A stretch of DNA of 37,484 nucleotides from Actinomycetota bacterium (GCA_030017355.1 JASEIR010000002.1:1285-38768); one strand, 5' to 3'. Shown: positions 3,354 through 29,547, numbered from the stretch's first letter. Numbers and translations are program-made. The notes: generated by a model not told the origin, from the letters alone.

Positions 3354-4550
3354 CTAGTGATCTTGCTCTTTTACAAACTTTCCTTCAACCGGAAGCAGTG
3401 GTAGCATCCTTAAGCCCATTATGTATACGAATGCTATGAAGGCAAATATACCTATAAACTGAATTATCTCTGCTAGATGAGGTATATAGGGCATAACAAC
3501 TCCGTCTTGGAATGAACTGGCAAGTTCATAACCTGGAAATATTGGGATAGGTAGGAACTGGCCTGGTAGTATAAAGAGCATCCTTTCACCAAGCACACCG
3601 ATCACATGTAAAACCGATGCCGTTAGTATCCATTTAATTTTCGTTTTCGTAGCTGGGTTTAGCAGCAGGAAAATTGGTATTAGCAATCCAAGCCCGTATA
3701 GCATTCCCCAAAACACCCAAGTAAAGAATCCGCCGCTAAACATTACATAAAACTCGCCTTCCTGGGCTTCGGGTACATATAGATGAGTTAAGTGCTCAAT
3801 CGTTACAAGATAAAACACAAATATTATTAGCCCGAGCATAACCCGGCTTAGCTGCTGGAAGAATCGCATATCTATAGATCTTTTTGTAAGCTTGAAGGTG
3901 TAATAAAGCACAACCATTGCAAGAGCACTACCTGATGAAAGCGCAGCAACAACAAATGCTAGTGGTGTTATTGATGAGAAGAACATATCTCTTCCATTTA
4001 CAACACCAAAGATAAATCCAGTACCTGAGTGGACAAAAATAGCGACTATAACAGCTGTTATGCCTAGTATCTTTGTCCATTTTTCATTCTCTTTAAGCTG
4101 CGCCCATAAATACAACACACCAACTGTCATGTATGTCATGTATATGTATGCGTTCAATGACAGCATTGACCTTGGGTTTACCATATAAAATGGCAAAACA
4201 ATCCTGTCTGGCCGGCCCCAATCAGTAATTAGAATTCCAAGCGCTCCGGCCATGAACAAAACAGCATTAAATGCCGCAACCCTTCCTAGTACTTTGTATT
4301 CCTTCTGGCCAAATATAGCCGATAGCGCTGACATTATTAGTGACCCTGCACTAAGACCGACAAACAAAACAAATATAACTTTTGCTCCAGCCCAAGTTAC
4401 AGAGTGGCTCATTCCCGTGATATACATGCCCTTTATGAACCTGACGTAAGAGGCAACCAGCCAGCCAAGAACGAGGGTGCCTAGTATACCCACGGTCCAG
4501 TAATATTTGGGAGTTTTCCCTTCTATTGGTGCAAAATAATACTTAGCCAT
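3354..4550 (-). CDS. dsrP: DsrP, NrfD/PsrC-type polytopic quinone-interacting membrane subunit of DsrMKJOP
   Basis: 398-aa, highly hydrophobic ORF (about 10 TM segments). It starts 15 nt after dsrO, in the canonical position at the end of dsrMKJOP. Confidence 0.85.
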   Translation of the reverse strand: MAKYYFAPIEGKTPKYYWTVGILGTLVLGWLVASYVRFIKGMYITGMSHSVTWAGAKVIFVLFVGLSAGSLIMSALSAIFGQKEYKVLGRVAAFNAVLFMAGALGILITDWGRPDRIVLPFYMVNPRSMLSLNAYIYMTYMTVGVLYLWAQLKENEKWTKILGITAVIVAIFVHSGTGFIFGVVNGRDMFFSSITPLAFVVAALSSGSALAMVVLYYTFKLTKRSIDMRFFQQLSRVMLGLIIFVFYLVTIEHLTHLYVPEAQEGEFYVMFSGGFFTWVFWGMLYGLGLLIPIFLLLNPATKTKIKWILTASVLHVIGVLGERMLFILPGQFLPIPIFPGYELASSFQDGVVMPYIPHLAEIIQFIGIFAFIAFVYIMGLRMLPLLPVEGKFVKEQDH

Positions 4551-16289: not shown

Positions 16290-18254
16290 TTACAAAGGAA
16301 TTGTAACCATGATGGTTGTACCCCTATCGGGGTTTGGGTATACGTTAAAAGTTCCGCCAACTAATCGTGTTCTGGTTTGCATCCCGTCAACACCCAACTT
16401 TCCGTGACGCGATAGTTCTCCAATGCTTGAAGGCAATACAAATCCCTTTCCATTATCTACTATTTTGACTATAGTCTGCTTGTCATCGAAAGTTAGTACG
16501 ACTTGAGCCTTTGTTGCGCAAGCATGCTTTATAATATTTCGTAAAGCCTCTTGGATAATGCGGAAAAGAGTTACTTCGATTTCTGGTGTAAACCGTCTCT
16601 TCTTTCCTAATACCGTTAATTCTGTATCAATGTTATGATCTTCTTTTAGCTGGTTAATTAGCCACTCAACAGCAGGAAGCAGACCTAGCTCATCTATGAC
16701 TGAGGGCCGCAAATCTCTGCTTAGCTGCCTTACTTCATTTACAGCATCTTTAATCTGCTTATGGATGCCCCATAATACAGCTAACCTATCTCTTGGCAGC
16801 AAACGATCCTCTTCACAGAATTTCTCAAGCAATCTTAGTATTCCAATTAAGCTTTGAACTGTACTGTCATGGAGCTCTCGGGATATCCGTAATCTTTCTT
16901 CTTCATGAGCTCTGGTTATTTGCTGTAGGTAAAAACTTTGATCCTCCTGCATTCTTACTTCTTTTGTTATATCCCGACCAATAAATTGTATAGCTCCATA
17001 ATGACCGTCTATTGATATTCGATTAGCAGTTAGCATAACAAAAGCCCGCGATCCATCTTTCCGAATAATTGTCCTCTTGTATGGCTGCTGTTTACCGGCT
17101 CTATTTAGTTCATCCTTCTGAGTCAAAGATAAAGCTGAGTCATCATGTAAGAATAAATTCTTACTGTCAATACCGACCAGTGATTCTAAATCATATCCGA
17201 AAAGCCCTGCAGCTGCTTTGTTTGCTGTTATAACTTTTCCATGTGTATCTTGAACCCATATCGCATCATGCGCATTTTCGAAAAGCTCCCGATACTTTTT
17301 CTCGGATAACTTTAGCTTTTCAATTGCTCTAATTCTTGCATGATAGAGAAGATAGTTATGCATGGCAATGCCAATTAAATTCCCTAATGCTGTAAGCAAT
17401 TTAATATCTGACGTTTCAAGTAATCTATCTGACTTTATTGCTACGCATAGAATCCCCACGACTTCTCCATGCGCAACCAATGGAACGCTATGCTCTGATC
17501 TTAAGCCTTCTCTAAGTCGAATCTTGTTTGTTAAGCCATGCGATGCATCACCTAATACTATTCCGTCTAAGACCCTTGCTGATCCTTCATTTATGCCTTC
17601 ATATGCTATTAGCTTCAGCGCCTTGCTACCTTCATCAATAGAAAATACTAAAACAACTTCAACTTGTATTAGCTTCATAACCATGCCAATGGTTGTTTTC
17701 ATAATTTGATCTAACTCGTTTGACTTGCTCATCATTGTTGTTAAAGAATTTATGACTGATAGCTGTCTCTCCTGCTCTAAAGATAGTTTGACGGTTGTAT
17801 CCAAATCCCTCTGAGTGGCTTCTAATTGCTCCTTTGTCAATTCTAACTGCTCGGTTTGCTTTCTATAGCGATCAATCAATAAAGGTGCAAGGCTCCCAAT
17901 TAAGCAAATCACAAGTGTTTCCCACATGGCCTCTAGAGGTTGATTTGATATGAAAAGAGCTCTTGGCAGCATTGCAATAAAAGCCAGTATGACTGAGACC
18001 AATCCTCCTCTTGGTCCAAGGATAAAACTACTAAGAGTAATCGGAAGTAAATAAAGAATTCTATCAATTGTATGCCTTGTAATGCCTAGTGTTATATCGG
18101 GGCGTGAAAATAACCGAAAGGATGTCTGATCTTCGTAATGATGAAGTGTTATTAGAGTAAAAATAACTATTACTGACCAGATCTGGGGATTATAGATAGA
18201 TAATTGCTGATTCCCGCCCTGAGGTTTCCAAAGTATTTTAGTTGTCCGTTTCAT
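16290..18254 (-). CDS. Sensor histidine kinase (polytopic membrane sensor - coiled coil - GAF - PAS - HisKA_3 - HATPase), TCS-1
   Basis: H-box EERLRISRELHDSTVQSL (HisKA_3 type) and ATPase motifs DNGKGF and GVDGMQTRTRLVGGTF. The PAS-like segment is YRELFENAHDAIWVQD. The ATG at 18254 has a GGAG SD and leaves a 13-nt gap after the RR stop, the same spacing as in TCS-2. The track start at 18305 overlaps the RR gene. Confidence 0.85.
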   Translation of the reverse strand: MKRTTKILWKPQGGNQQLSIYNPQIWSVIVIFTLITLHHYEDQTSFRLFSRPDITLGITRHTIDRILYLLPITLSSFILGPRGGLVSVILAFIAMLPRALFISNQPLEAMWETLVICLIGSLAPLLIDRYRKQTEQLELTKEQLEATQRDLDTTVKLSLEQERQLSVINSLTTMMSKSNELDQIMKTTIGMVMKLIQVEVVLVFSIDEGSKALKLIAYEGINEGSARVLDGIVLGDASHGLTNKIRLREGLRSEHSVPLVAHGEVVGILCVAIKSDRLLETSDIKLLTALGNLIGIAMHNYLLYHARIRAIEKLKLSEKKYRELFENAHDAIWVQDTHGKVITANKAAAGLFGYDLESLVGIDSKNLFLHDDSALSLTQKDELNRAGKQQPYKRTIIRKDGSRAFVMLTANRISIDGHYGAIQFIGRDITKEVRMQEDQSFYLQQITRAHEEERLRISRELHDSTVQSLIGILRLLEKFCEEDRLLPRDRLAVLWGIHKQIKDAVNEVRQLSRDLRPSVIDELGLLPAVEWLINQLKEDHNIDTELTVLGKKRRFTPEIEVTLFRIIQEALRNIIKHACATKAQVVLTFDDKQTIVKIVDNGKGFVLPSSIGELSRHGKLGVDGMQTRTRLVGGTFNVYPNPDRGTTIMVTIPL

Positions 18255-18267
18255 GTTGGTTGCTCCA

Positions 18268-18921
18268 CTAATCCAGGCCAACCCAACCTTTTTTAAATGC
18301 AACAATAACAGCTTCTGTTCTCGAATTTACGCCTAATTTATCAAAAATATGACCTAGGTGTGCTTCAACTGTACGCACACTCACGTAGAGCTTGTCTGCG
18401 ATCTCCTTATTACTCTTACCCTGCGAGGCTAGTCCTAGAATCTCTATCTCACGATCTGTAAGAACTTTGTAGGAGTCATAGGTCTGAACCTTACTCTTAC
18501 TAACAAAACGGTCGATTACCTTACGCATAATAACAGGATGTAAGACGGATTCCCCTCTAGCCACGCGACGTATACTATCAATAAGTTCTTTCCCGCTTAT
18601 ATCTTTTAGTAAATAACCAGCAGCCCCCGAATCAAGAAGGGATACTATATATTGGTCTATGTCATATGCAGTAAGAATAAGTATTGGCACAGAGATATTT
18701 AAAGCCCTTATTTGCTTCGTAGCCTCAATTCCACTGAGCTTGGGCATAGCCACGTCAGCTACAATAATGTCTGGCCGCAACTCCCTTGCTAAATCCACCA
18801 TTTGTTCGCCATCTGCAGCTTCACCAACTACTTCCAAATCTCCCTCTTTTTCCAAATATTGCTTGAGACTCTCCCGAACAAATGTATGGTCCTCAGCAAG
18901 AAGAATTCTTATCTTTTTCAT
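18268..18921 (-). CDS. NarL/LuxR-family response regulator, TCS-1
   Basis: Receiver domain (ILLAEDH, DIIVADVAMPKLSG, ILTAY) plus a LuxR-type HTH (LTDREIEILGLASQGKSNKEIADKLYVSVRTVEAHLGHIFDKLGV). Confidence 0.9.
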   Translation of the reverse strand: MKKIRILLAEDHTFVRESLKQYLEKEGDLEVVGEAADGEQMVDLARELRPDIIVADVAMPKLSGIEATKQIRALNISVPILILTAYDIDQYIVSLLDSGAAGYLLKDISGKELIDSIRRVARGESVLHPVIMRKVIDRFVSKSKVQTYDSYKVLTDREIEILGLASQGKSNKEIADKLYVSVRTVEAHLGHIFDKLGVNSRTEAVIVAFKKGWVGLD

Positions 18922-19116
18922 AGTAGATATACTATAGCCATTTTCAGTAATTTCTATTGGTTATTACCCGAACTTGTCAATGTTTAAACGAACAATAATC
19001 AATCATTGCATAACCTCTTTAATTCTTTTCAATCGACAGCTGAAATATGAATCGATTGATAATATAGATGGAATTATTATATGCGGGCAGATTTCAGAAT
19101 CTATAGTAATTGGCCA

Positions 19117-20484
19117 TTAAAAGTAAAACACGTAATATCTTAACCATACATAAATCGTGCTAATTATCATTGTTAAAATCATTATTGGCATGCCATAGAT
19201 AAGAAATTTTGCAAACGTAATCTTATTGCCCATCTTTTCAGACATTCCAACAATGACTACATTTGCAGAAGCGCCAATAGCTGTTCCGTTTCCACCAAGA
19301 CAAGCGCCAAGTGCTAAGGACCACCAGATTGGCATCAATTGAGGGTTGTGAAGAAGCTGGATTCCTGCTTGATTTGGCCATAGCTTATGAGCCATATCGA
19401 TTATTAAGGGATTCATTGTAGCAACATATGGGATATTATCAACTATAGCCGATGCAAATGCTGAAAACCACATGATAATCATGCTCATAGCAAACAAATT
19501 TCCTTTGGTTATATCTAGTACTTTTAAGGAGGCCAGATCTATAAGCCCTACCTTGACTATACCTCCAATAATAATAAACAAGCCTATGAAAAAGAATATC
19601 GTTGCCCACTCAACTTCTGAAAATATGCTATGCAAATTTGGCTTTCTCGAAAGAAGCAAAAGCAATCCAGCTCCAAGCATGGCTATTGTTGCCGGTTCTA
19701 GGCCAAGCATACCATGTGCAATAAAACCAATTATTGTAATGCTTAGCACAAACAACGACTTTCCAAGCATTGAATAATCCTTTATTGCTTCTTTCTCGTT
19801 CATTTTCATGATTCTTGCTTTTAGCTCATCTTTTGTCTTTAATTTCTTGCCCCAGATAAGTTTTATCGCAAGAAGGTATACAGCCATAATTAAAATTATT
19901 GCGGGCGTAAGATGGTATATAAATTCCATGAAATCTAATTTAGCCTTTGAAGCTATCATAATATTTGGCGGGTCACCAATCAAAGTAGCAGTACCACCAA
20001 TATTAGATGCAAGCGCGCAAGAAATGAGGTAAGGAATTGGGTCAACATCGAGCGCATCTGCTATTAGTAGCGTCACTGGTGTGATTAAGAGTACTGTAGT
20101 TACATTATCTAAGAAGGCACTAATAAACGCAGTTACAATAGCAAATATTGCAAGTATCTTAAACGGCTCACCTTTACCAATTTTAGCACTTTTTATTGCT
20201 ATATATTCAAAGATACCTGTTGGTCGCATGATATTAACTATCAACATCATCGATATAAGCAAAAATATTACATTCCAATCTACGCCAAGCTCTTCGGAAT
20301 GAAATGCTTCTTGCTGGCTGAGTATGCCCATCGCAATAACAAGAGCAGCGCCAAAGATCGCTATAATTGTTTTATGTATGCGCTCAGAAACTATTAGGCT
20401 ATAAGATATGCCAAACACAGCGGTTGCTGCCCAAAAGCTTTTATCCATTACAATTTGTTGTGTTGCAGAACCCTCGGCTATCAT
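19117..20484 (-). CDS. ArsB/NhaD-type (ion-transporter superfamily, CitMHS/SLC13-like) anion permease
   Basis: 455-aa polytopic protein. The internal two-fold repeat carries the family-typical SAFLDNVTTVLL and SAIVDNIPYV hairpin motifs. It starts 11 nt after the CBS gene stop. Confidence 0.7.
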   Translation of the reverse strand: MIAEGSATQQIVMDKSFWAATAVFGISYSLIVSERIHKTIIAIFGAALVIAMGILSQQEAFHSEELGVDWNVIFLLISMMLIVNIMRPTGIFEYIAIKSAKIGKGEPFKILAIFAIVTAFISAFLDNVTTVLLITPVTLLIADALDVDPIPYLISCALASNIGGTATLIGDPPNIMIASKAKLDFMEFIYHLTPAIILIMAVYLLAIKLIWGKKLKTKDELKARIMKMNEKEAIKDYSMLGKSLFVLSITIIGFIAHGMLGLEPATIAMLGAGLLLLLSRKPNLHSIFSEVEWATIFFFIGLFIIIGGIVKVGLIDLASLKVLDITKGNLFAMSMIIMWFSAFASAIVDNIPYVATMNPLIIDMAHKLWPNQAGIQLLHNPQLMPIWWSLALGACLGGNGTAIGASANVVIVGMSEKMGNKITFAKFLIYGMPIMILTMIISTIYVWLRYYVFYF

Positions 20485-20495
20485 TCCATCAATCC

Positions 20496-20969
20496 TTAAT
20501 CTTCATAGAACATTTCTTTTGTGATCGCAAGGAATAAGTTGTGCTCGTAAAGCATTCCAATAACCGCACCAGTCTCGCCAATGACTGGCAATCTTTTAAC
20601 CCCATGCTTTAGCATGTGATCAATGCATTCCATAAGCGGAGCATCTTTGCTAACCGCTACTACAACTTTGCTCATAATATCCCTGACTAGACGTTCTCCA
20701 GATCTTTTAGCAATACCTTCTACCATTCCCTCCCATGAAAAATCACCTAAGTCTAGCATATCCATATAAAAAGGAAGCATAGCCTTAAGTACATCTCTCA
20801 TGGAGAGAATCCCTACCAGCTTTCCAAAATCATCCTTTACTGGTAATCCTTTACTGCCAATACATTCCTCTCCGCTCCTTGTTGTTCTTAAAAGAATTAC
20901 AGCTTTTTTAAGCGTATCATCTGGCTTTAAAAAATCGATTACAGGAATCATTATATCCTCTGCTCTCAT
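20496..20969 (-). CDS. CBS-pair (Bateman) domain protein
   Basis: About 157 aa with two CBS repeats (..LPVKDDFGKLVGILSMRDVLKA.. and ..RLPVIGETGAVIGMLYEHNLF..). The ATG at 20969 lies 5 nt after SD AAGGAG. The track start at 20975 is a GTG inside the SD. Confidence 0.8.
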   Translation of the reverse strand: MRAEDIMIPVIDFLKPDDTLKKAVILLRTTRSGEECIGSKGLPVKDDFGKLVGILSMRDVLKAMLPFYMDMLDLGDFSWEGMVEGIAKRSGERLVRDIMSKVVVAVSKDAPLMECIDHMLKHGVKRLPVIGETGAVIGMLYEHNLFLAITKEMFYED

Positions 20970-21110
20970 AAGCACTCCTTTTGCTTACCTTCCATTCTTT
21001 TTATTTAATATCCATATGCTTCTTTAAGCTATTTGTAGAAGCCAAGGTCGCTCTTAGGGAAGCTAACGATATATTACAAAACACCATCTTTTGATTCTAG
21101 TCAAAGCAAA

Positions 21111-21142
21111 AGAGAGCGAGAAGATTATTTTTCTCGCTCTCT
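21111..21142 (-). terminator. Rho-independent terminator after USP cassette 2
   Basis: A 12-bp perfect stem (AGAGAGCGAGAA / TTCTCGCTCTCT) with an 8-nt loop. On the minus strand it is followed by TTTGCTTTG. It lies 58 nt downstream of the USP stop. Confidence 0.7.
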
Positions 21143-21199
21143 CCTTAATCATTTTTTCTTTAAGTTAATTCTGGATTGCCTTTTTATTATGCTAGACCA

Positions 21200-22081
21200 C
21201 TAATTAGATTTTACTACTAGCACTGGACACTTTGCGCTTCCAATAACCTTTTCAGTGGTGCTTCCCATAAGAAGCCGTCTTAAGCCAGTGCGACCGTGAC
21301 TACCCATGCATATAGTATCAGCATTTAGTTCGTCAGCCATACTTAAAATCTTCTTATGGGTTTCCCCTTCCCTAACGTAGGTCTTAGCTTTTATGCCTGC
21401 CGACGCCGCCTTTTCCTTAACCGAATCTACATAACTTCTAGCGCCCTCAATCATTTTTTCTACAGCATCTGGTGCCTGTGCGAAAAATTCGTCTGATACA
21501 TCAACTACAGAGAGTATTATAATCTCGCCTCCACACAATTGAGCCATTGATATAGCTCTATTTGCGGCTATATCGCTATATCTAGAACCATCAACAGCTA
21601 GCAGAATTGTGTCGAAGCTAATAGAGCTATCATGCGGCATAACAAGCACATCTATCGGGCTATAACCAATTACCCTTGCTGTTATGCTTCCCATAAAGGC
21701 TCTCTCGATATTGCCTAATCCCCTTCGCCCCATGACAATTAAGTCTACGTCGTGCGACGTTGCAACATCGATTATTACCTCATGGATATTGCCCTCTTCA
21801 AGCGATGACGGCAAAAAGGCGCCTTCATCGCGAGCAATCTGCATTGCCTCAGACAGTATTTTTTCACCAGGCTCTCTAAACGCTCGTTTGATATTGCGCA
21901 TTCCAATTAGCTCTATTTCTCCTTCGTATGATGGTATAGCGGTTACTACCATTACATCACCGCCACACTTACCCTTTTTTGTGAACCTTATAGTTTGCCT
22001 AAGAGCATTCTTGCTCGAATCAGACCCATCAAAGGCAACTAATATGTCTCTAAATTTCCTCATAGGTAATAGTTTTCCCAT
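21200..22081 (-). CDS. Tandem universal stress protein, cassette 2
   Basis: 293 aa, collinear paralogue of 13400-14290 (VMGRRGLG.., ICMGSHGRTGLRRLLMGSTTEKVIGSAKCPVLVVK). It has the same SD context, AAGGAAGCTG. Confidence 0.85.
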   Translation of the reverse strand: MGKLLPMRKFRDILVAFDGSDSSKNALRQTIRFTKKGKCGGDVMVVTAIPSYEGEIELIGMRNIKRAFREPGEKILSEAMQIARDEGAFLPSSLEEGNIHEVIIDVATSHDVDLIVMGRRGLGNIERAFMGSITARVIGYSPIDVLVMPHDSSISFDTILLAVDGSRYSDIAANRAISMAQLCGGEIIILSVVDVSDEFFAQAPDAVEKMIEGARSYVDSVKEKAASAGIKAKTYVREGETHKKILSMADELNADTICMGSHGRTGLRRLLMGSTTEKVIGSAKCPVLVVKSN

Positions 22082-22111
22082 CGCAAACAGCTTCCTTTTT
22101 CAGTGGCTATC

Positions 22112-22173
22112 CTTAGATATCATTATAGCTAAGCATTCTTAGATATCATTATAGCTAAGCATTATAGCTAAGC
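22112..22173. repeat. Tandem direct repeat: 26-bp unit CTTAGATATCATTATAGCTAAGCATT x2 plus a partial third copy
   Basis: Units at 22112-22137 and 22138-22163 are identical, followed by ATAGCTAAGC. On the minus strand each unit reads GCTTAGCTATAATG, so a consensus -10 hexamer is reiterated upstream of the USP gene. Confidence 0.9.
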
Positions 22174-22226
22174 TATATTAGATTTATTATAGCCAAGCTG
22201 CACTTAATAAACCATCCTGGCTAGCT

Positions 22227-23393
22227 TTAGTTTACTGCCGTCTCAAGACTAATAGTCCTATCTCTTTCTTCCGCTGGCTTCTTACGCATAGCCTTTGCCA
22301 AACTACCCCCGATTATTATTGCACCAAGAGTTAAGGCAAAAACCATAATATAAAAGCTTATGTTGCTAAATGTCGGTATAAGGTTGTCTGCAAAATGTGT
22401 TAGACCAAGCTGATTTGTGTATTTAGGAATTGCAAAACCCCTACTAAAGGCAACTATGAGCATAATGGTTCCCATAACAACCTTTATCATATGCTCTTTT
22501 ACATAGGTGGTCCCAACAGCACCGATCTGGATGCCAAGTAGCGAGCCAGCAAGAATCATTAATGTTAGCCTTATGTCTATGTTTCCAACCAAAGCCCACT
22601 CAGTAGATCCAACAAGGCCCATTATAAATGCAATTACTAGCTCTGTTGCAGATGCTACTAGACTTGTCGCACCAATTATGTAAATCATTCCGGGAACACC
22701 CACAAACCCGCCGACTGCAATTGTTGCTGCCAGCAGACCGGTTGCAAGACCAACCGGAATCGTAATCCACATAGAAATCCTTAAGCCCGCGGTTTTAAAA
22801 TTCATCATTGGAGGAATATTGATCTTCTGCAGAGCTAGCGCAAGTCTAGATATTCTTTCGGGACCTGGGTTTTTCTTTGACTTCCATGCATCATAGAAGA
22901 CATAACTACCCACCGTAAGGAGTATTACTAGAAAAGCAAAGCTTACATAAAGATTAGATCCTGCTTCGCCCCACATGCGCTGTATATATTGCTGCACGAT
23001 AATGCCAATTTTTACACCAACAGACGCAGATACGCCCAGCGTTAAGCCAAGTTTAACATCAACTTGACCATATTTGTGCCGTTTAATTGCACCTACCAAG
23101 GCTTTAGGAAATTTGTGGCACATATTGCTAGCAACAGCCACAAGCCCCGGTACACCAATACTCATCATAGCTGGAGTTAATACGAAAGCACCTCCAGACC
23201 CTATAAAACCGCTAACCATTCCACCTATAAAACCAACAATAAACAAGAACACCGCATTAAAAAGAGTAAGCTCAATAAACTTGTTTCCTGTAAACGCTTT
23301 TACTGCTTCACCTGTAGCTAGGGCAGGACTTGCTAAAATTACAAGCAGTAAGACCGCTACCAGAGAACTGAAAATCACTCTACTTCGTATCAT
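22227..23393 (-). CDS. TSUP-family (TauE/SafE, DUF81) permease, long form, cassette 2
   Basis: Collinear paralogue of 14341-15516 (GFIGSGGAFVLTPAMM, AVGGFVGVPGMIYI) with the N-terminal LASPALATGE. The ATG at 23393 lies 7 nt after SD GAAGGAAGG. The track start at 23399 is a TTG. Confidence 0.8.
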   Translation of the reverse strand: MIRSRVIFSSLVAVLLLVILASPALATGEAVKAFTGNKFIELTLFNAVFLFIVGFIGGMVSGFIGSGGAFVLTPAMMSIGVPGLVAVASNMCHKFPKALVGAIKRHKYGQVDVKLGLTLGVSASVGVKIGIIVQQYIQRMWGEAGSNLYVSFAFLVILLTVGSYVFYDAWKSKKNPGPERISRLALALQKINIPPMMNFKTAGLRISMWITIPVGLATGLLAATIAVGGFVGVPGMIYIIGATSLVASATELVIAFIMGLVGSTEWALVGNIDIRLTLMILAGSLLGIQIGAVGTTYVKEHMIKVVMGTIMLIVAFSRGFAIPKYTNQLGLTHFADNLIPTFSNISFYIMVFALTLGAIIIGGSLAKAMRKKPAEERDRTISLETAVN

Positions 23394-23576
23394 ATACAAC
23401 CCTTCCTTCTCATTTATTCAGTTCAGCCGCCTAAGCACATGAGGTCGGGTCAGCGCATATTTTCATTTAATGCATTTCTAATCCTATTCCTCCTTAGGTA
23501 TGGCGTCTTATACATAAACCATAAACCATATTTTTCAATGTAAAGTTTTCAAAGATCTCTTTTATTTTTCTTTTTC

Positions 23577-23822
23577 TTACTTTTTCTTCTTCGCTACTAT
23601 ACCAAGCGACGACATGAGGCTATCAGCAAAAGTTCCATGCACAAAAGAGAAAACAAAGACTGTTACAATTGGTAATATTGCGTAGACCCCTCCCTTTGCC
23701 CAGGTACTCCTTACAAAAACTTCGTTCGCAAATACCGCTATGTATAGGGCTAGTGATAGCACTCCAAATAAAAGTGCTTTTGCATATGGCTTTTTTGCGG
23801 GTTTACCAGTAGTCTTGGCCAT
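23577..23822 (-). CDS. Small (81-aa) two-TM membrane protein, cassette 2
   Basis: Paralogue of 15608-15850. The SD AAGGAGG lies 9 nt before the ATG at 23822 and only 3 nt before the ATG at 23828. Confidence 0.65.
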   Translation of the reverse strand: MAKTTGKPAKKPYAKALLFGVLSLALYIAVFANEVFVRSTWAKGGVYAILPIVTVFVFSFVHGTFADSLMSSLGIVAKKKK

Positions 23823-24235
23823 AAACATTAACCTCCTTTGCTAATTATTTAACTTTTATTCCCCCCTTCCTTGTGATTTTTCTAGCATTTAGTGCATGGC
23901 ACTAGTGATATCCACCGCAGTAAAATCTGGGCGCTAATAAAATGAGTACCTCAGTAGCATGCAAGCCTATTTTCATATTAGCACTACGGGTTATTTCGTC
24001 AATGGCCAACGAGTATGTACACTATTCGCCGCACCGCATTATGCTGAATGATTCAATGCATTAATTCACAAAGAATTAAACGTTATTTCCGCACGATACA
24101 AGCTGTGATTTAACGTTTACATTAGTCAGAGTAATACGTTGTCAAATCTTGGTACTAGCTCCGATGTGCACGGACCGCGTTCATGTTCAAATGAAAACTA
24201 GTCAAATTCCCAATCGCTAATGAAGGAGGGAACAT

Positions 24236-25198
24236 ATGATAAATAAGAAACAATACGGCTTTTTGCTTATAAGCTCACTGATATTTCTAGCAGCGTTATT
24301 TGCATCACATCCCGCATTAGCTGCTTCAGGTAATCACTCAGCCAATGTTGCCAGTACCACTCCATGGTGGATATGGCCATTGGTTTTATTTTTAGTTACT
24401 TTCACTATGGGAATAGTTGCGATCCCTGCTGGCGTAGGTGGCGGGGTTCTTTTTGTTCCAATTGTCAGCAGTTTCTTTCCTTTTAACCTTGACTTTGTCA
24501 GAGGCGCAGGCTTAATGATTGCCCTATCAGGATCGTTAGCTGCTGGTCCTGGTTTGCTTAAGAGAGGACTTGCTGACCTTAGATTGGCAATGCCGGTGGC
24601 TCTTATAGCGTCAGTATGCTCTATTTTAGGTGCTATGGTTGGCCTTGCTATACCTCAAAATCTTGTTCAAATAGGCCTTGGTGCAGCAATTCTCGGGATT
24701 GTAGTGGTTATGCTGACTGCTAAAAAGTCAGAGTATCCTGAAGTTAGAAAGCCAGACGCATTGTCTATAGCCTTGCGATTGTCTGGCATCTATCACGAAT
24801 CATCAACCAATCAAAACATATCGTGGCAAATCCACAGAGCACCAGCTGGTTTCGTTTTATTTATTCTTATTGGTTTTATGGCTGGCATGTTTGGTCTTGG
24901 TGCCGGCTGGGCAAATGTTCCCGTTTTAAATCTCGTGATGGGAGCACCACTTAAATTATCTGTTGCTACAAGCAGTTTCCTACTTTCCATAACAGACACG
25001 TCAGCTGCCTGGATTTACATAAATAAAGGAGCGATATTACCTATGGTTGTTGCTCCCTCTATTGTTGGAATGATGTTGGGTGCGTTTGTTGGCGCAAAGG
25101 TACTTGCAAAAGCAAAACCATCAAGAATTAGATATATTGTTATTACAATGCTCTTTTTATCTGGCTTAAGAGCCTTACTTAAAGGCTTTGGTGTGTAA
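24236..25198 (+). CDS. TSUP-family (TauE/SafE, DUF81) permease, 320-aa form, copy 1
   Basis: SD GAAGGAGGG. Canonical DUF81 motif AGVGGGVLFVPIV and second-half GLGAGWANVPVLNLVMG. The signal-like N-terminus ends in HPALAASG. Confidence 0.85.
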   Translation: MINKKQYGFLLISSLIFLAALFASHPALAASGNHSANVASTTPWWIWPLVLFLVTFTMGIVAIPAGVGGGVLFVPIVSSFFPFNLDFVRGAGLMIALSGSLAAGPGLLKRGLADLRLAMPVALIASVCSILGAMVGLAIPQNLVQIGLGAAILGIVVVMLTAKKSEYPEVRKPDALSIALRLSGIYHESSTNQNISWQIHRAPAGFVLFILIGFMAGMFGLGAGWANVPVLNLVMGAPLKLSVATSSFLLSITDTSAAWIYINKGAILPMVVAPSIVGMMLGAFVGAKVLAKAKPSRIRYIVITMLFLSGLRALLKGFGV

Positions 25199-25305
25199 TA
25201 AAAGGCATTTTAAAGTCATTTGTTTTACCTTTCTTAAAAGCTTGAATTCGACTTATAAAAGAATAAAGCATTAGAAAGGTTATTGCATGATTTAAGGAGG
25301 TAGAA

Positions 25306-25782
25306 ATGGCTGTTACACCATCAGGTAGTAGTGAATTAACCAAGCCTGCTGACGAGTTAATCTCCCTGGATGAGAAAAAAATTGGAGCAACAAAAGAGCA
25401 GCTCACATACTCCAGTATCCTTGGCTTGGGAAGAAAAGTTGGTCTAGCCGGCATTATAGCTGCTTTCGTAGTTTACATAACAGGGCTGATAACGCCTAGA
25501 ATACCTTTGGAAAGAGTACCGCAGGTCTGGAATCTATCGTCCTCCGATTACCTTAAAGCCGTGGGCCTTAAACCTGGCTGGTCTTGGCTTGCCATGTATC
25601 GTTATAGCGATATGCTTAACTTCTTCGGTATCGCAATTCTTGGAATTATAAGCATTATTTGTTACCTAGCCATAATACCAGAATTCATACGCAAAAAAGA
25701 TAAAGTATATGTTGCTATAGCAATTCTTGAAGTCATCGTTCTTGCAGTTGCAGCTTCTGGTATTATTAATATTGGAGAATAG
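25306..25782 (+). CDS. DUF1634-like small membrane protein partnered with the TSUP permease, copy 1
   Basis: 158 aa with SD AAGGAGG and about 3 TM segments. It has a paralogue at 27367-27834 (shared ..PGWSWL.MY...D.LNFF.IA.L..I.I.CY.AIIP...RKKD..Y...A.LE). The family name is from memory of TauE-DUF1634 gene pairs and is not verified. Confidence 0.7.
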   Translation: MAVTPSGSSELTKPADELISLDEKKIGATKEQLTYSSILGLGRKVGLAGIIAAFVVYITGLITPRIPLERVPQVWNLSSSDYLKAVGLKPGWSWLAMYRYSDMLNFFGIAILGIISIICYLAIIPEFIRKKDKVYVAIAILEVIVLAVAASGIINIGE

Positions 25783-25801
25783 CACCTCTTATAACTCCTC
25801 T

Positions 25802-25829
25802 AATGATGGCATCTAGCGATGCCATCATT
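25802..25829 (+). terminator. Rho-independent terminator after TSUP-320/DUF1634 copy 1
   Basis: A 12-bp perfect stem (AATGATGGCATC / GATGCCATCATT) with loop TAGC, followed by CATTTTCT. Confidence 0.75.
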
Positions 25830-26048
25830 CATTTTCTAACCAACCAATACCTTCCCTTCAAAAATAAATAATAACACTTAGCGTAATAAAAGCAGTTTAA
25901 CTTATGGTGCATAATGGTATTCATTATAATAAGATAGGTAATTCTACGTAGTTAACTATTGACGATTTCACATACTCTGGTAACATTTAATATAGCTTGC
26001 AAGCCATAATTTGGTCTTTTATAGGGTAAGCATCCTTTGCTTTTAACA

Positions 26049-26155
26049 TTTGTATGCGTAGGCCATCTATAAGACCAACAATAAACAAGAACACCGCATG
26101 TAATTGTTTGGCCTGGTTTATAGAACATCCGCCTACGCATACAAAGGTTTGTATG
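26049..26155 (+). other. TSUP-390 gene fragment (37 nt) held in the loop of a perfect 15-bp inverted repeat; either a decayed gene relic or the seed of an antisense sRNA
   Basis: 26049-26063 (TTTGTATGCGTAGGC) pairs perfectly with 26131-26145 (GCCTACGCATACAAA). Positions 26063-26099 are 35/37 identical to 15344-15380 and 23221-23257. A third TTTGTATG at 26148-26155 offers an alternative hairpin. The strand of any transcript is unknown. Confidence 0.45.
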
Positions 26156-26364
26156 ATACATGCACGGCCGTGTTGTGACATAAAAAGCGCTGGAGAGCTT
26201 CTAAAAGACATCTGGTCTAGATCATTTTTGAACACAAAGTCGCTTGAAGCAGTTAGGCTATAGATATTTGCCATTGTTGCTGTCTCTATTAGGTAGTTGG
26301 CAAATTTTCTAATTTATAGCTCAGTTTAGCGACCCTAAATTAAACGCTAAAGGAAGGATGATAC

Positions 26365-27327
26365 ATGAGAGTTAGCAGGACTATCGCCACCGCAGTGATA
26401 TTTTTTATTAGCTTGTTTATCCTCACCACCGAGCCTGCTTTAGCATCTGGGATTTCAAAGAGCGCGACTTCGGCATCCAGTACTCAATGGTGGATATGGC
26501 CGGTTTTATTGTTTATCGTAACGCTTGTTATGGGTATAGTTGCAGTTCTCGCTGGTGTTGGCGGTGGCGTGTTGTTCACCCCAATAATCGGCGGGTTTTT
26601 TCCGTTTAATATGGATTTTGTAAGAGCAGCTGGCTTGATTGTGGCTCTATCAGGCTCACTTGCTGCTGGTCCTGGCCTGTTAAAGAAAGGAATGGCTGAT
26701 TTAAGGCTTGCAATACCAGTAGCCCTAATTGCATCATCAGCTGCTATCGTTGGAGCCATGATCGGCCTGGCCTTGCCTGATAATATCACTCAGACTACTT
26801 TGGGAATTGCCATACTTGCGATTGTGGCAATCATGCTTCTTGCCAAGAAATCTGAGTATCCAGAGGTTAAAAAGGCAGATAGTCTATCATCAGCGCTAAG
26901 GATTACTGGTATTTACCATGAGGCTGCAACTGGTCAGGATATCAACTGGAAGATTCACAGAACACCTCAAAGTCTAATAACGTTTATCTTCATAGGTATT
27001 ATGGCAGGCATGTTTGGACTCGGCGCTGGCTGGGCAAATGTACCTGTTCTTAACCTTATGATGGGTGCCCCACTTAAAGTATCAGTTGCAACAAGTAAAT
27101 TTCTTCTTTCAATAACCGATACATCAGCAGCCTGGGTCTATATAAACAAGGGCGCTGTAATACCAATGATTATTGTTCCATCCGTTGTAGGGATTATGCT
27201 TGGTTCCTTTATTGGGGTAAGGCTGCTAGCAAAGACAAAGCCTTCTGCTATAAAAATTATCGTCATAGCTTTATTGGCTTTTTCTGGTCTAAGAGCCCTA
27301 CTTAAAGGCATTGGCATTTGGACCTAA
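26365..27327 (+). CDS. TSUP-family (TauE/SafE, DUF81) permease, 320-aa form, copy 2
   Basis: Collinear paralogue of 24236-25198 (AGVGGGVLFTPII, GLGAGWANVPVLNLMMG). SD AAGGAAGG. N-terminal EPALASG. Confidence 0.85.
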   Translation: MRVSRTIATAVIFFISLFILTTEPALASGISKSATSASSTQWWIWPVLLFIVTLVMGIVAVLAGVGGGVLFTPIIGGFFPFNMDFVRAAGLIVALSGSLAAGPGLLKKGMADLRLAIPVALIASSAAIVGAMIGLALPDNITQTTLGIAILAIVAIMLLAKKSEYPEVKKADSLSSALRITGIYHEAATGQDINWKIHRTPQSLITFIFIGIMAGMFGLGAGWANVPVLNLMMGAPLKVSVATSKFLLSITDTSAAWVYINKGAVIPMIIVPSVVGIMLGSFIGVRLLAKTKPSAIKIIVIALLAFSGLRALLKGIGIWT

Positions 27328-27366
27328 TAGTAAAACTCAAGGCTTGCTTTAAAAGGAGGAAGAAAC

Positions 27367-27834
27367 ATGAGTACTCCAGAAAGTCAGTTAAAAGAAAAAC
27401 AACAGGTAGCTGTGGAGGCTGGTAAAAGGTTAATAGCCACTGAAGAGCAAACGACCTATGCTAAAATCCTTGATATTGGCATGAAGATAGGTCTTATTGC
27501 AATTATTGTGGCATTTTTTCTCTATGCTTTTGGTATTTTAAGCCCAAAAATACCGGTCACCGAGGTATCAAAATACTGGGGTATGAAAAGCCACGATTAT
27601 CTCGAAGCTGTCAACATACAACCAGGCTGGTCATGGCTTTCAATGTATAAACATGGCGACTTTTTGAACTTTTTCCCAATTGCTTTTCTAGCGGGATTAA
27701 CAATTGTTTGCTATGTTGCAATAATACCTATCCTTATACGCAAAAAGGATGCAATTTACGCAGTTTTAGCATTGCTTGAAGTGCTTGTTTTGTTAGGGGC
27801 AGCATCAGGACTTCTTGCTGCTGGAGGGCACTAG
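27367..27834 (+). CDS. DUF1634-like small membrane protein, copy 2
   Basis: 155 aa, SD AAGGAGGAAG, paralogue of 25306-25782. Confidence 0.7.
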   Translation: MSTPESQLKEKQQVAVEAGKRLIATEEQTTYAKILDIGMKIGLIAIIVAFFLYAFGILSPKIPVTEVSKYWGMKSHDYLEAVNIQPGWSWLSMYKHGDFLNFFPIAFLAGLTIVCYVAIIPILIRKKDAIYAVLALLEVLVLLGAASGLLAAGGH

Positions 27835-28326: not shown

Positions 28327-29547
28327 ATGTCAAAACTAGTCCCCCCACATGGTGGCGGTGAGTTAAAGCCGCTTCTACTCGAAGGCGATGAGCTAAAAGA
28401 AGAATGGGAAAAGGCTCAAACCCTAGAGAAGGTTATGATGACCTCACGTGAGACAGGCGATCTAATTATGATGGGCATAGGCGCCTTCACTCCACTAGAA
28501 GGTTTCATGACAAAAGCTGACTGGAAAGGTGTTTGCGATGAGTACAAGATGGAAAATGGGATTTTCTGGCCTATTCCGATAACACTTTCCACGTCAAAAG
28601 AACAAGCCAAAAATCTAAAAGAAGGTCAAGAGGTTGCACTTGTTGATACCGAGACTGGCGAGCTCATGGGCAGCATGGAAATCACTGAGAAATATGAGAT
28701 TGACAAAGTCTATGAATGTAAACAGGTATTTAGAACCGATGATATGGAAGGGCACCCAGGCGTTCAAAAAGTTATGGCCCAGGGTGATGTCAACCTTGCC
28801 GGTAAGGTAAAGGTATTTAGCGAAAGCTATTTCCCGGAAATGTTTAAGGGTGTTTACATGCGCCCAGCTGAAACAAGAAAAGCTTTCGAGGAGAGAGGCT
28901 GGAGTACTGTTGCTGCATTGCAGCTTAGGAATCCAATGCACCGCTCCCATGAGTATCTCGCAAAAATAGCTATCGAAGTAACCGATGGTGTACTAATTCA
29001 CCAGCTTGTTGGTAAACTTAAACCAGGTGATATTCCTGCTGAAGTTAGGGTAAAAGCCATTGATAAGCTTGTTGAACTTTACTTTGTACCCAATACGGTT
29101 ATTCAGGCTGGCTATCCAGCGGAAATGCGCTATGCCGGCCCGCGTGAAGCACTCTTGCATGCAACCTTCCGTCAGAACTATGGCTGCAGCCACCTAATAG
29201 TTGGTCGTGACCATGCTGGCGTTGGTGAATACTATGGCCCGTTTGATGCCCAGCATATATTTGATGAGATTCCTAAGGATGCCCTTATTACAAAGCCGCT
29301 TAAGATTGACTGGACGTTCTACTGCTATAAATGCGATGGAATGGCATCAATGAGAACTTGTCCACACGGTAAAGAAGATAGGCTGATCCTTAGTGGTACC
29401 AAATTAAGAAAGATGCTATCTGAGGGTGAAGAGGTACCAGATCACTTCAGCCGTCCAGAAGTTCTCGAAATCCTAAGGGAATATTATGCAAGCCTTACAG
29501 AGAAAGTTGAAGTTAAACTTCACAAGTATGCTGAGGGTGAAAAGTAA
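28327..29547 (+). CDS. sat: Sulfate adenylyltransferase (ATP sulfurylase), homo-oligomeric type
   Basis: 406 aa with SD AAGGAGG. Motifs: N-terminal [29 protein letters not shown] and a C-terminal Cys/His zinc-type motif ([15 protein letters not shown]). Confidence 0.95.

Follow-up and report, generated by a model that had tools for sequence, protein, structure and literature searches.

Why do two transporter genes share one run of 38 nucleotides (nt) without a single difference, when a hairpin kilobases away, between two operons of another transporter class, carries a segment complementary to that same run? The question arises in a 37,484-nt stretch of DNA (hereafter the window) from an Actinomycetota bacterium (GCA_030017355.1, JASEIR010000002.1:1285-38768). 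Two paralogous genes on its minus strand encode the TauE/TSUP transporters that we call TSUP-390, and two tandem operons on its plus strand, A and B, encode a shorter TauE-family protein, TSUP-320, each with a membrane partner. The hairpin element lies within the 582-nt spacer that separates operons A and B, upstream of operon B. An earlier reading of the sequence (the original prediction) had proposed that it specifies a trans-acting antisense small RNA (sRNA) directed against both TSUP-390 mRNAs. The antisense idea now has strong comparative support, in the form of a conserved element, stem, and core, but the free-standing sRNA of 100 to 250 nt that was envisaged looks more like a module within TSUP-320 operon transcripts, situated in a 3' untranslated region (UTR) or a leader. 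We therefore favor, with moderate confidence and on comparative sequence grounds, a structured antisense RNA module that is carried in TSUP-320 transcripts and pairs with TSUP-390 mRNAs.

The hairpin and its match to the TSUP-390 genes

The arms of the outer stem (P1) form a perfect 15-bp inverted repeat, as first described, and enclose 67 nt; a repeat search widens the arms to 19 nt at 95% complementarity (coordinates of all features are given in Table 1). The 37-nt segment proposed to be antisense agrees with each of the two TSUP-390 genes in 35 of its 37 nt, and no such match arose in 100 shuffles of the window. The paralogs themselves are about 70% identical, and the block is an exact run of 38 nt common to both, the next-longest run being 16 nt. 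Homology beyond the block had been judged unconvincing, and sensitive blastn searches extended the similarity only to 51 nt at 86% identity, with paralog A. Both differences between element and genes are transitions on the plus strand (C to T and A to G), which become wobble pairs in a duplex of plus-strand RNA and mRNA, again as originally described.

Conservation across lineages

Related loci were gathered through exact-protein look-ups and two DNA-pattern scans. A 22-mer scan across 185,579 species genomes matched only two of Aquicultor type, together with two probable chance hits, and an element-specific 26-mer scan of metagenomes matched three contigs. The hairpin is present in five lineages: the window type (the window, L001, and L003/L004); L016 (GCA_902810715.1); L024/L025 (Aquicultor secundus-like metagenome contigs, with two copies); L026/L027 (Candidatus Aquicultor sp., with two copies, L027 being cut by a contig end); and L032 (GCA_023511485.1). 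A covariance model built from six element copies and searched against about 280 kb of related loci matched only the elements of these five lineages. Every copy found adjoins TSUP-320 genes and lies on the TSUP-320 coding strand.

Conservation of stem and seed among relatives had been suggested as a check on the original prediction, and across the five lineages it takes the form of an invariant core and compensatory stem changes. A 32-nt core (26067-26098, CTATAAGACCAACAATAAACAAGAACACCGCA) is identical in all eight element copies, while both the rest of the loop and the flanks have diverged. Complementarity to TSUP-390 extends over 33 to 37 nt in every lineage, and the core is invariant in the eight elements and in seven gene copies. 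The sequence of P1 changes with its pairing kept (TTTGT/ACAAA, CTGCAC/GTGCAG, CTGTGT/ACACAG, and GGT/ACC), and its otherwise constant inner part shows one swap of T-A to A-T. Double compensatory changes affect five P1 pairs across lineages. In the alignment, which was fitted to the model, 88% of cells pair, compared with at most 47% when the partners are slid, and the covariation score of 0.156 (0.080 in shuffles) was reached by 0 of 500 shuffles. We consider the covariation support for the stem good but not overwhelming, since the sample is small and the alignment is model fitted.

Close relatives of the window share an invariant run of 159 nt (26049-26207), while 33 of 588 intergenic columns vary among them. 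The 62 nt of this run that lie past the hairpin (26146-26207) have no counterpart in the other lineages and no obvious structure. In L024, the P1 5' arm of copy 1 (3798-3812) carries an 11-nt internal duplication (CGTAGGT GCCT CGTAGGT), yielding two alternative stem registers. The two element copies of L026 (6500-6600 and 6945-7048) share an identical 3' loop segment, CCGCAATGACCAATTGTTTATGAC, that is unlike those of other lineages. This identity indicates that gene conversion acts between element copies and that some of the uniformity among elements is thus concerted.

Frozen codons in the target block

A codon alignment was made of six TSUP-390 genes (both window paralogs and those of L016, L024, L026, and L032). 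Of its 221 codons at invariant degenerate residues, 24 are themselves invariant, and half of these form one unbroken run of 12, AVFLFIVGFIGG, which is exactly the block. By our own arithmetic, the chance of a 12-codon run is about 0.11^12, before correction for the few hundred possible positions. The outgroup homolog L034 (about 70% amino acid [aa] identity) holds a near-identical motif, TLFLFVVGFIGG, with two conservative substitutions, and differs at 11 nucleotides across the same 12 codons; the covariance model found no element within the 17-kb L034 locus. The base differences and the missing element together indicate that the codon freeze is not intrinsic to the protein or to its translation. 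Antisense pairing had been offered as the explanation of the frozen synonymous sites, and a block that is invariant in six genes and not in the outgroup homolog lends support to it.

Loci with TSUP-320 operons and no adjacent TSUP-390 (L017 and L028 to L031) also yielded no element with the covariance model. As far as the available partial contigs show, the element and the frozen block go together. At one position, every element has a G where the antisense strand of every gene has an A, so that a G·U pair results in the duplex; this fixed difference implies that no gene-to-element conversion has run across the whole block since the lineages split. RNAalifold placed a weak hairpin in the target mRNA around the block (-14.7 kcal/mol, with two covarying pairs), and within the window the apical seed has no targets other than the two TSUP-390 genes.

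Predicted fold and duplex formation

P1 is paired in every fold computed and measures 10 to 16 bp across copies. Inside it, the helices P2 and P3 are predicted to form between stretches of the invariant antisense strand and a 3' strand that drifts, leaving an apical loop of about 15 nt. Across copies, 75% of cells are paired in P2, the 5' side of which is invariant, and 89% in P3. Single-sequence folds have z-scores of -3.3 to -8.4, and the hairpin is retained when the whole 388-nt leader is folded. The loop had been thought to present the complete 37-nt segment; about 15 nt are indeed exposed in the fold, but P2 and P3 sequester much of the antisense segment. Opening the apical-loop segment is predicted to cost about 3 kcal/mol, as opposed to about 21 kcal/mol for the whole antisense block. 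When hairpin and target are cofolded, the minimum free energy (MFE) structure of the dimer contains the 37-bp duplex; once the cost of unfolding the two RNAs is deducted, the net gain is -16.5 to -17.8 kcal/mol.

Because no U tract follows 26145, the hairpin, with its 67-nt loop, is not an intrinsic terminator. Two further pairings were dropped. The right arm had been said to pair alternatively, and exclusively of P1, with TTTGTATG at 26148-26155; this partner is present in the window but absent from the other lineages. When the full leader is folded, the motif CAUCCUU (26033-26039), immediately 5' to P1, is paired with the Shine-Dalgarno region (26351-26357) of TSUP-320B; this interaction is weakened in L003, absent from L024 and L026, and probably not general.

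Promoter and transcript context

The possible promoter TTGACG-N16-TAACAT of the original prediction was recovered by a promoter scan, which showed its -10 hexamer to be preceded by TG, and its position is conserved in L024 and L026. The equivalent site stands at the same distance in L026 and is located by alignment in L024. Among these promoter-like sites, the -35 hexamer, the TG-extended -10 hexamer, and their spacing are conserved in the midst of DNA that is not. The direct repeat that directly precedes the -35 hexamer in the window reads TACGTA-N4-TACGTA in L024 (about 4197-4212) and in L026 (6832-6847); this repeat may be a transcription factor site, possibly for one of the neighboring LuxR-type response regulators. 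The palindrome AGCTTGCAAGC falls near the predicted start of transcription and may serve as an operator or form a protective 5' hairpin. A version with one mismatch, AGCATGCAAGC, occurs upstream of TSUP-320 operon A (23956-23966).

Elements occupy two positions relative to the operons. Copy 2 (in the window, L024, and L026) is situated about 60 nt downstream of the promoter-like site and upstream of operon B. Copy 1 (in L016, L024, L026, and L032) starts 8 to 14 nt past the stop codon of the operon A partner gene and has no promoter of its own; a strong intrinsic terminator lies 30 to 40 nt further on in L024 and L026, and by its placement the copy 1 element of these two lineages is part of the operon A 3' UTR. 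Counted overall, three lineages place the element in the operon A 3' UTR, two of them ahead of a terminator. The window lacks copy 1, since the operon A terminator directly follows the 158-aa gene. Copy 2 is missing from L032, and L016 lacks TSUP-320B, its single element lying beside a truncated B-type partner gene. Thus, every lineage holds at least one copy of the element, and the surviving copy differs. The open reading frame (ORF) that follows the L016 element (9324-9719, 131 aa) is an N-terminally truncated B-type partner, 68% identical to window positions 27367-27834, which indicates that this lineage deleted TSUP-320B and retained one element. Upstream of TSUP-320B in L032, and in no other lineage, there is a tandem repeat of GATATCTTAACCAGAG-like units (about 3490-3535, minus strand).

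Read on the plus strand, the alignment contains 14 G·U cells and 5 A·C cells. This bias, the conserved promoter, and the 3' UTR position ahead of terminators point indirectly to transcription of the element on the plus strand. A weak hairpin followed by five T residues (26210-26229) had been pointed out downstream. No terminator was called there, and close relatives carry indels at the site; the T tract (26225-26229) was rejected as a terminator, its site not being conserved.

Proposed mechanism and points against it

Under the antisense reading, the plus-strand element would be transcribed in the operon B leader behind its own conserved promoter and, in some relatives, a second time in the operon A 3' UTR. 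The apical loop would make first contact with the complementary sequence UGCGGUGUUC, about 47 codons into each TSUP-390 mRNA, and pairing would then spread into a duplex of 33 to 37 bp. Since the site lies that far inside the coding sequence, the likely read-out is duplex cleavage, by a double-strand-specific ribonuclease (RNase) of the RNase III type, or a block to elongation, rather than a block to initiation. Expression of the TSUP-320 class would lower that of the TSUP-390 class, and if the paired RNAs were degraded together, the effect could run both ways. The 12 target codons would be frozen at synonymous sites because both partners must stay complementary.

As to its origin, an old tandem duplication of the TSUP-320 operon would have included a fragment from the 5' part of the TSUP-390 gene, which is oriented divergently, and the captured fragment would thereby have come to be read in antisense by TSUP-320 transcription. 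The element probably descends from such a duplicated fragment of its target gene. A decayed gene copy, the alternative named in the original prediction, thus probably describes how the element arose but not what it is now, which is likely a functional antisense RNA.

Several points count against this reading. Neither terminator scans nor alignment revealed a conserved terminator between copy 2 and the operon B start codon, which favors a long leader containing the window element over an independent sRNA; processing could release a discrete sRNA from this leader. The strand call is of moderate strength, and minus-strand folds are predicted to be equally good energetically in two of four cases. 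Pairing 47 codons into the coding sequence cannot block initiation, and repression would need an RNase. The direction of control may be the reverse of that proposed, or the effect could be stabilizing rather than repressive. With only five lineages, and with stem types common to orthologous copies, independent covariation events are few, and conversion between element copies, as read from their sequences, adds to their uniformity. Moreover, the co-occurrence of element and block was judged on partial contigs, and the element-free loci are not whole genomes. A fuller version of the proposal, in which a hairpin born from its own target is excised by an RNase as a discrete antisense RNA and silences both TSUP-390 paralogs through a perfect duplex, the loci being co-conserved, strikes us as doubtful.

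Alternative explanations

The conserved block could instead be a shared binding site, in which a third-party protein or RNA recognizes both the TSUP-390 block and its intergenic copy, either as a co-regulated site or as a decoy. Both copies are conserved at the nucleotide level, as this would require, and in the window and L016 the minus strand folds as stably as the plus strand. However, 32 to 37 contiguous invariant bases far exceed typical protein sites, and a covarying stem with its strands 67 to 90 nt apart argues for a folded single strand. An RNA decoy would need a minus-strand transcript, whereas the G·U bias, the promoter, and the terminator context all indicate the plus strand; in addition, the copy 1 terminators, having A and U tracts on both sides, would stop minus-strand transcripts coming in from downstream. 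We regard a shared site as unlikely.

Similarly low standing goes to a structure acting purely in cis within the UTR, as a stabilizer of TSUP-320 mRNA, a processing site, or an attenuator, with the similarity to TSUP-390 a matter of history. The element is always in or beside TSUP-320 transcription units, as 3' UTR or leader, and its long stem is plausible as an RNase III or stabilizer hairpin. Such a role would constrain pairing and not 32 exact bases, yet it is the 5' strand that is invariant while the 3' strand drifts; the 12 frozen TSUP-390 codons would go unexplained, and no U tract follows the window hairpin.

A neutral relic, meaning a functionless duplication scar with a TSUP-390 5' fragment that occasional gene conversion keeps gene-like, would account for several features. 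The order of gene block, operon A, element, and operon B is that expected from a duplication ending inside TSUP-390, the block remains in the TSUP-390 reading frame on the minus strand, and conversion between the two L026 copies is visible. The age of the duplication speaks otherwise. The TSUP-320 A and B proteins are 68% identical and their membrane partners 52%, so the duplication is old and a neutral relic should have decayed, as the duplicated protein genes have diverged; instead, the 32-nt core is invariant in eight copies from five lineages, next to a diverged loop and diverged flanks, and the flanking stem shows compensatory changes. Nor does the element resemble a decaying pseudogene, given a core that is invariant in five lineages beside unalignable flanks and an unbroken invariant run in close relatives. 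Gene and element have not been homogenized, as their fixed G/A difference shows, within-genome conversion cannot hold synonymous sites identical between species, and the retention of at least one copy in every lineage, with the surviving copy differing, is not what a relic would show. The operon A leader cannot be aligned with the region upstream of operon B; their comparison gave only a weak 20-nt match around AGCWTGCAAGC, and no match in L024 or L026. Taken together, these points leave a neutral relic quite improbable.

A recombination substrate acting at the DNA level, in which the block direct repeats promote deletion or amplification of TSUP-320 operons, appears very improbable. The repeats do lie 0.5 to 2.8 kb apart, and lineages do differ in element copies and operon parts, with TSUP-320B lost in L016, but the endpoint of the L016 deletion is not at the block repeats, recombination between gene and element would destroy TSUP-390, and the covarying stem and fixed G/A difference would be left unexplained. 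The element does not behave as a dispersed repeat or miniature inverted-repeat transposable element either: one copy is present in the 37-kb window, all copies at 36 loci are at the TSUP-320 position, and the stem varies by compensation.

A small protein gene is hardly credible: the 95-aa ORF 25987-26274, in which the block would encode a segment resembling a first transmembrane helix, runs uninterrupted in the window, L001, and L003 and is called by annotation pipelines, but in other lineages the frame around the block stays open for only 28 to 68 codons and neither a start nor flanking residues are conserved, indels of +2 and +1 in L003 rewrite about 10 codons, and there is no Pfam match. 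The ORF had been listed in the original prediction and does exist; it lies on the minus strand, however, with the block in the TSUP-390 reading frame. It was rejected as a gene, as nothing is conserved outside the block-encoded AVFLFIVG(L/F)I and stop-to-stop lengths range from 28 to 109 codons. In a related metagenome-assembled genome, it is annotated as a hypothetical protein (MEW5706735.1), an annotation that, from the comparison of sequences, is probably spurious.

Host and surrounding genes

The window encodes a sulfate adenylyltransferase (sat) that clusters at 90% identity with proteins of Candidatus Aquicultor secundus, and on sequence grounds the host is an uncultured actinobacterium of the Aquicultor group. 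Proteins identical to those of the window are present in a metagenome-assembled genome labeled Actinomycetota. Aquicultoria have been described as an uncultured group of Actinomycetota with a complete set of genes for dissimilatory sulfate reduction (PMC10591310). Each TSUP-390 gene, the outgroup homolog among them, is closely preceded by a small ORF of 78 to 105 aa with no Pfam match, which suggests that the small ORF and TSUP-390 form a conserved two-gene unit. Genes for tandem-domain universal stress proteins follow both TSUP-390 paralogs (window 13400-23399). Between the paralogs are genes for a CitMHS transporter and a CBS protein and for a GAF-PAS histidine kinase and a LuxR-type regulator, and a second kinase/regulator pair comes after sat; from its gene content, the locus resembles a dense cluster of genes for anion transport and its control. 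A scan of the window found no genes for tRNA or tmRNA. Upstream of sat, some Aquicultor secundus contigs carry IS21-type and DDE transposase genes in place of the TSUP-320 operons (L007, 782-3603).

Table 1. Coordinates of the hairpin element, its putative targets, and neighboring features (window numbering unless another locus is named)
Feature	Position	Strand	Source or remark
P1 5' arm, outer stem, TTTGTATGCGTAGGC	26049-26063	+	exact reverse complement of 26131-26145
P1 3' arm, GCCTACGCATACAAA	26131-26145	+	
Antisense block, 37 nt complementary to both TSUP-390 mRNAs with two G·U wobbles	26063-26099	+	
P2 5' strand, UCUAUA-GACCA, within antisense block	26066-26077	+	MFE, centroid, and consensus folds
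P2 3' strand, UGGUUUAUAGA	26114-26124	+	folds
P3 5' strand, UAAACAA, within antisense block	26082-26088	+	folds
P3 3' strand, UUGUUUG	26104-26110	+	folds
Apical loop exposing GAACACCGCA, candidate seed for first mRNA contact	26089-26103	+	fold
3' extension, invariant among close relatives	26146-26207	+	
Promoter-like site, TTGACG-N16-(TG)GTAACAT, about 60 nt upstream of hairpin	25959-25986	+	promoter scan
Direct repeat TAGGTA-N4-TACGTA, candidate regulator-binding site	25935-25950	+	conserved in L024 and L026
Palindrome AGCTTGCAAGC, near the predicted start of transcription	25994-26004	+	invariant in window, L024, and L026
Target block, TSUP-390 paralog B, about codons 47-59	23221-23257	-	
Target block, TSUP-390 paralog A	15344-15380	-	
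TSUP-390 paralog A, TauE/TSUP, about 390 aa	14341-15516	-	
TSUP-390 paralog B, TauE/TSUP, about 390 aa	22227-23399	-	
TSUP-320 operon A: 320-aa TauE-family protein and 158-aa membrane partner	24236-25782	+	
Operon A terminator	25802-25829	+	terminator scan
TSUP-320 operon B: 320-aa TauE protein and 155-aa membrane partner	26365-27834	+	
sat	28327-29547	+	
Small ORF upstream of TSUP-390, window	23577-23828	-	
Small ORF upstream of TSUP-390, window	15608-15925	-	
Small ORF upstream of TSUP-390, L016	7119-7361		
Small ORF upstream of TSUP-390, L024	1370-1618		
Small ORF upstream of TSUP-390, L026	4094-4336		
Small ORF upstream of TSUP-390, L032	5916-6152		
Small ORF upstream of TSUP-390, L034	7688-7930		

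Comparison with known regulatory RNAs

Searches of the whole window against Rfam 15 gave no match at the gathering score, and the region 25780-26370, searched at a permissive E value, gave sub-threshold noise only, with no family hit spanning the hairpin. A literature search on the RNA biology of Aquicultor returned nothing relevant.

Classical trans-acting sRNAs use seeds of 7 to 12 nt against several targets, usually near the ribosome-binding site. Unlike these, the element has full complementarity, of the kind seen in cis-antisense RNAs, to one site in two paralogs. Plasmid copy-number antisense RNAs and type I antitoxin RNAs are cis-encoded, start pairing through kissing loops, and are cleaved with their targets by RNase III. 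The element resembles them in its long perfect complementarity, its short G+C-rich hairpin loop, and a duplex suited to RNase III, but it lies 2.8 kb and 10.7 kb from its putative targets, on the strand of another operon. As it is not encoded opposite its targets, the complementarity must be kept by selection on two separate loci.

Plant microRNA genes can originate by duplication of target-gene fragments. The parallel with the element, which is evolutionary only, consists of a hairpin arm antisense to a gene and apparent descent from a piece of that gene. Bacteria are not known to have a Dicer/Argonaute pathway. Unlike plant microRNA genes, the element would stem from a direct duplication read in antisense by a neighboring operon, not from an inverted duplication, and its 3' arm has no demonstrable homology to the target gene.

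Closest among described systems are 3' UTR-derived sRNAs and, in Gram-positive bacteria, regulatory 3' UTRs and pairing between mRNAs, as in the vigR 3' UTR of Staphylococcus aureus, which acts on isaA and folD (PMC9217812), and the hly 3' UTR of Listeria monocytogenes, which pairs with the prsA2 5' UTR (PMC8722363). In both, as proposed here, the pairing segment resides in the untranslated part of a coding transcript and is aimed at an mRNA encoded elsewhere, and both belong to Hfq-independent lineages in which double-strand-specific or 5'-end RNases read out the pairing, to which we liken the element. Pairing in those systems is short, imperfect, UTR targeted, and stabilizing or activating, whereas that of the element covers 33 to 37 nt, is essentially perfect, and falls inside a coding sequence; the segment of the element also sits in a dedicated, covarying hairpin with three predicted helices.

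The sRNA GlnZ is released from the glnA 3' UTR (PMC9731577). With sRNAs of this type, the element would share a possible release from an operon transcript, a conserved seed and target site, and the coupling of functionally related genes, but unlike 3' UTR-derived sRNAs, the window copy has no evident processing or terminator-defined 3' end.

Significance

If the antisense reading is true, this locus provides an unusually clear comparative example of a coding sequence marked by RNA-RNA regulation, with 12 codons frozen across a class of uncultured sulfate-reducing Actinomycetota by a partner RNA kilobases away. It would illustrate one route by which regulators are born, through a duplicated target fragment that is read backwards by a neighboring operon. 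The element adds an undescribed structured RNA family and corrects a hypothetical-protein annotation, and a search for frozen synonymous blocks with a nearby antisense copy can find regulators in metagenomes without expression data. For the organisms themselves, the pairing would link two classes of TauE/TSUP transporters beside the sulfate-activation genes (sat and qmo) and would suggest a post-transcriptional, either/or control of anion transport in bacteria that are not yet cultivable.

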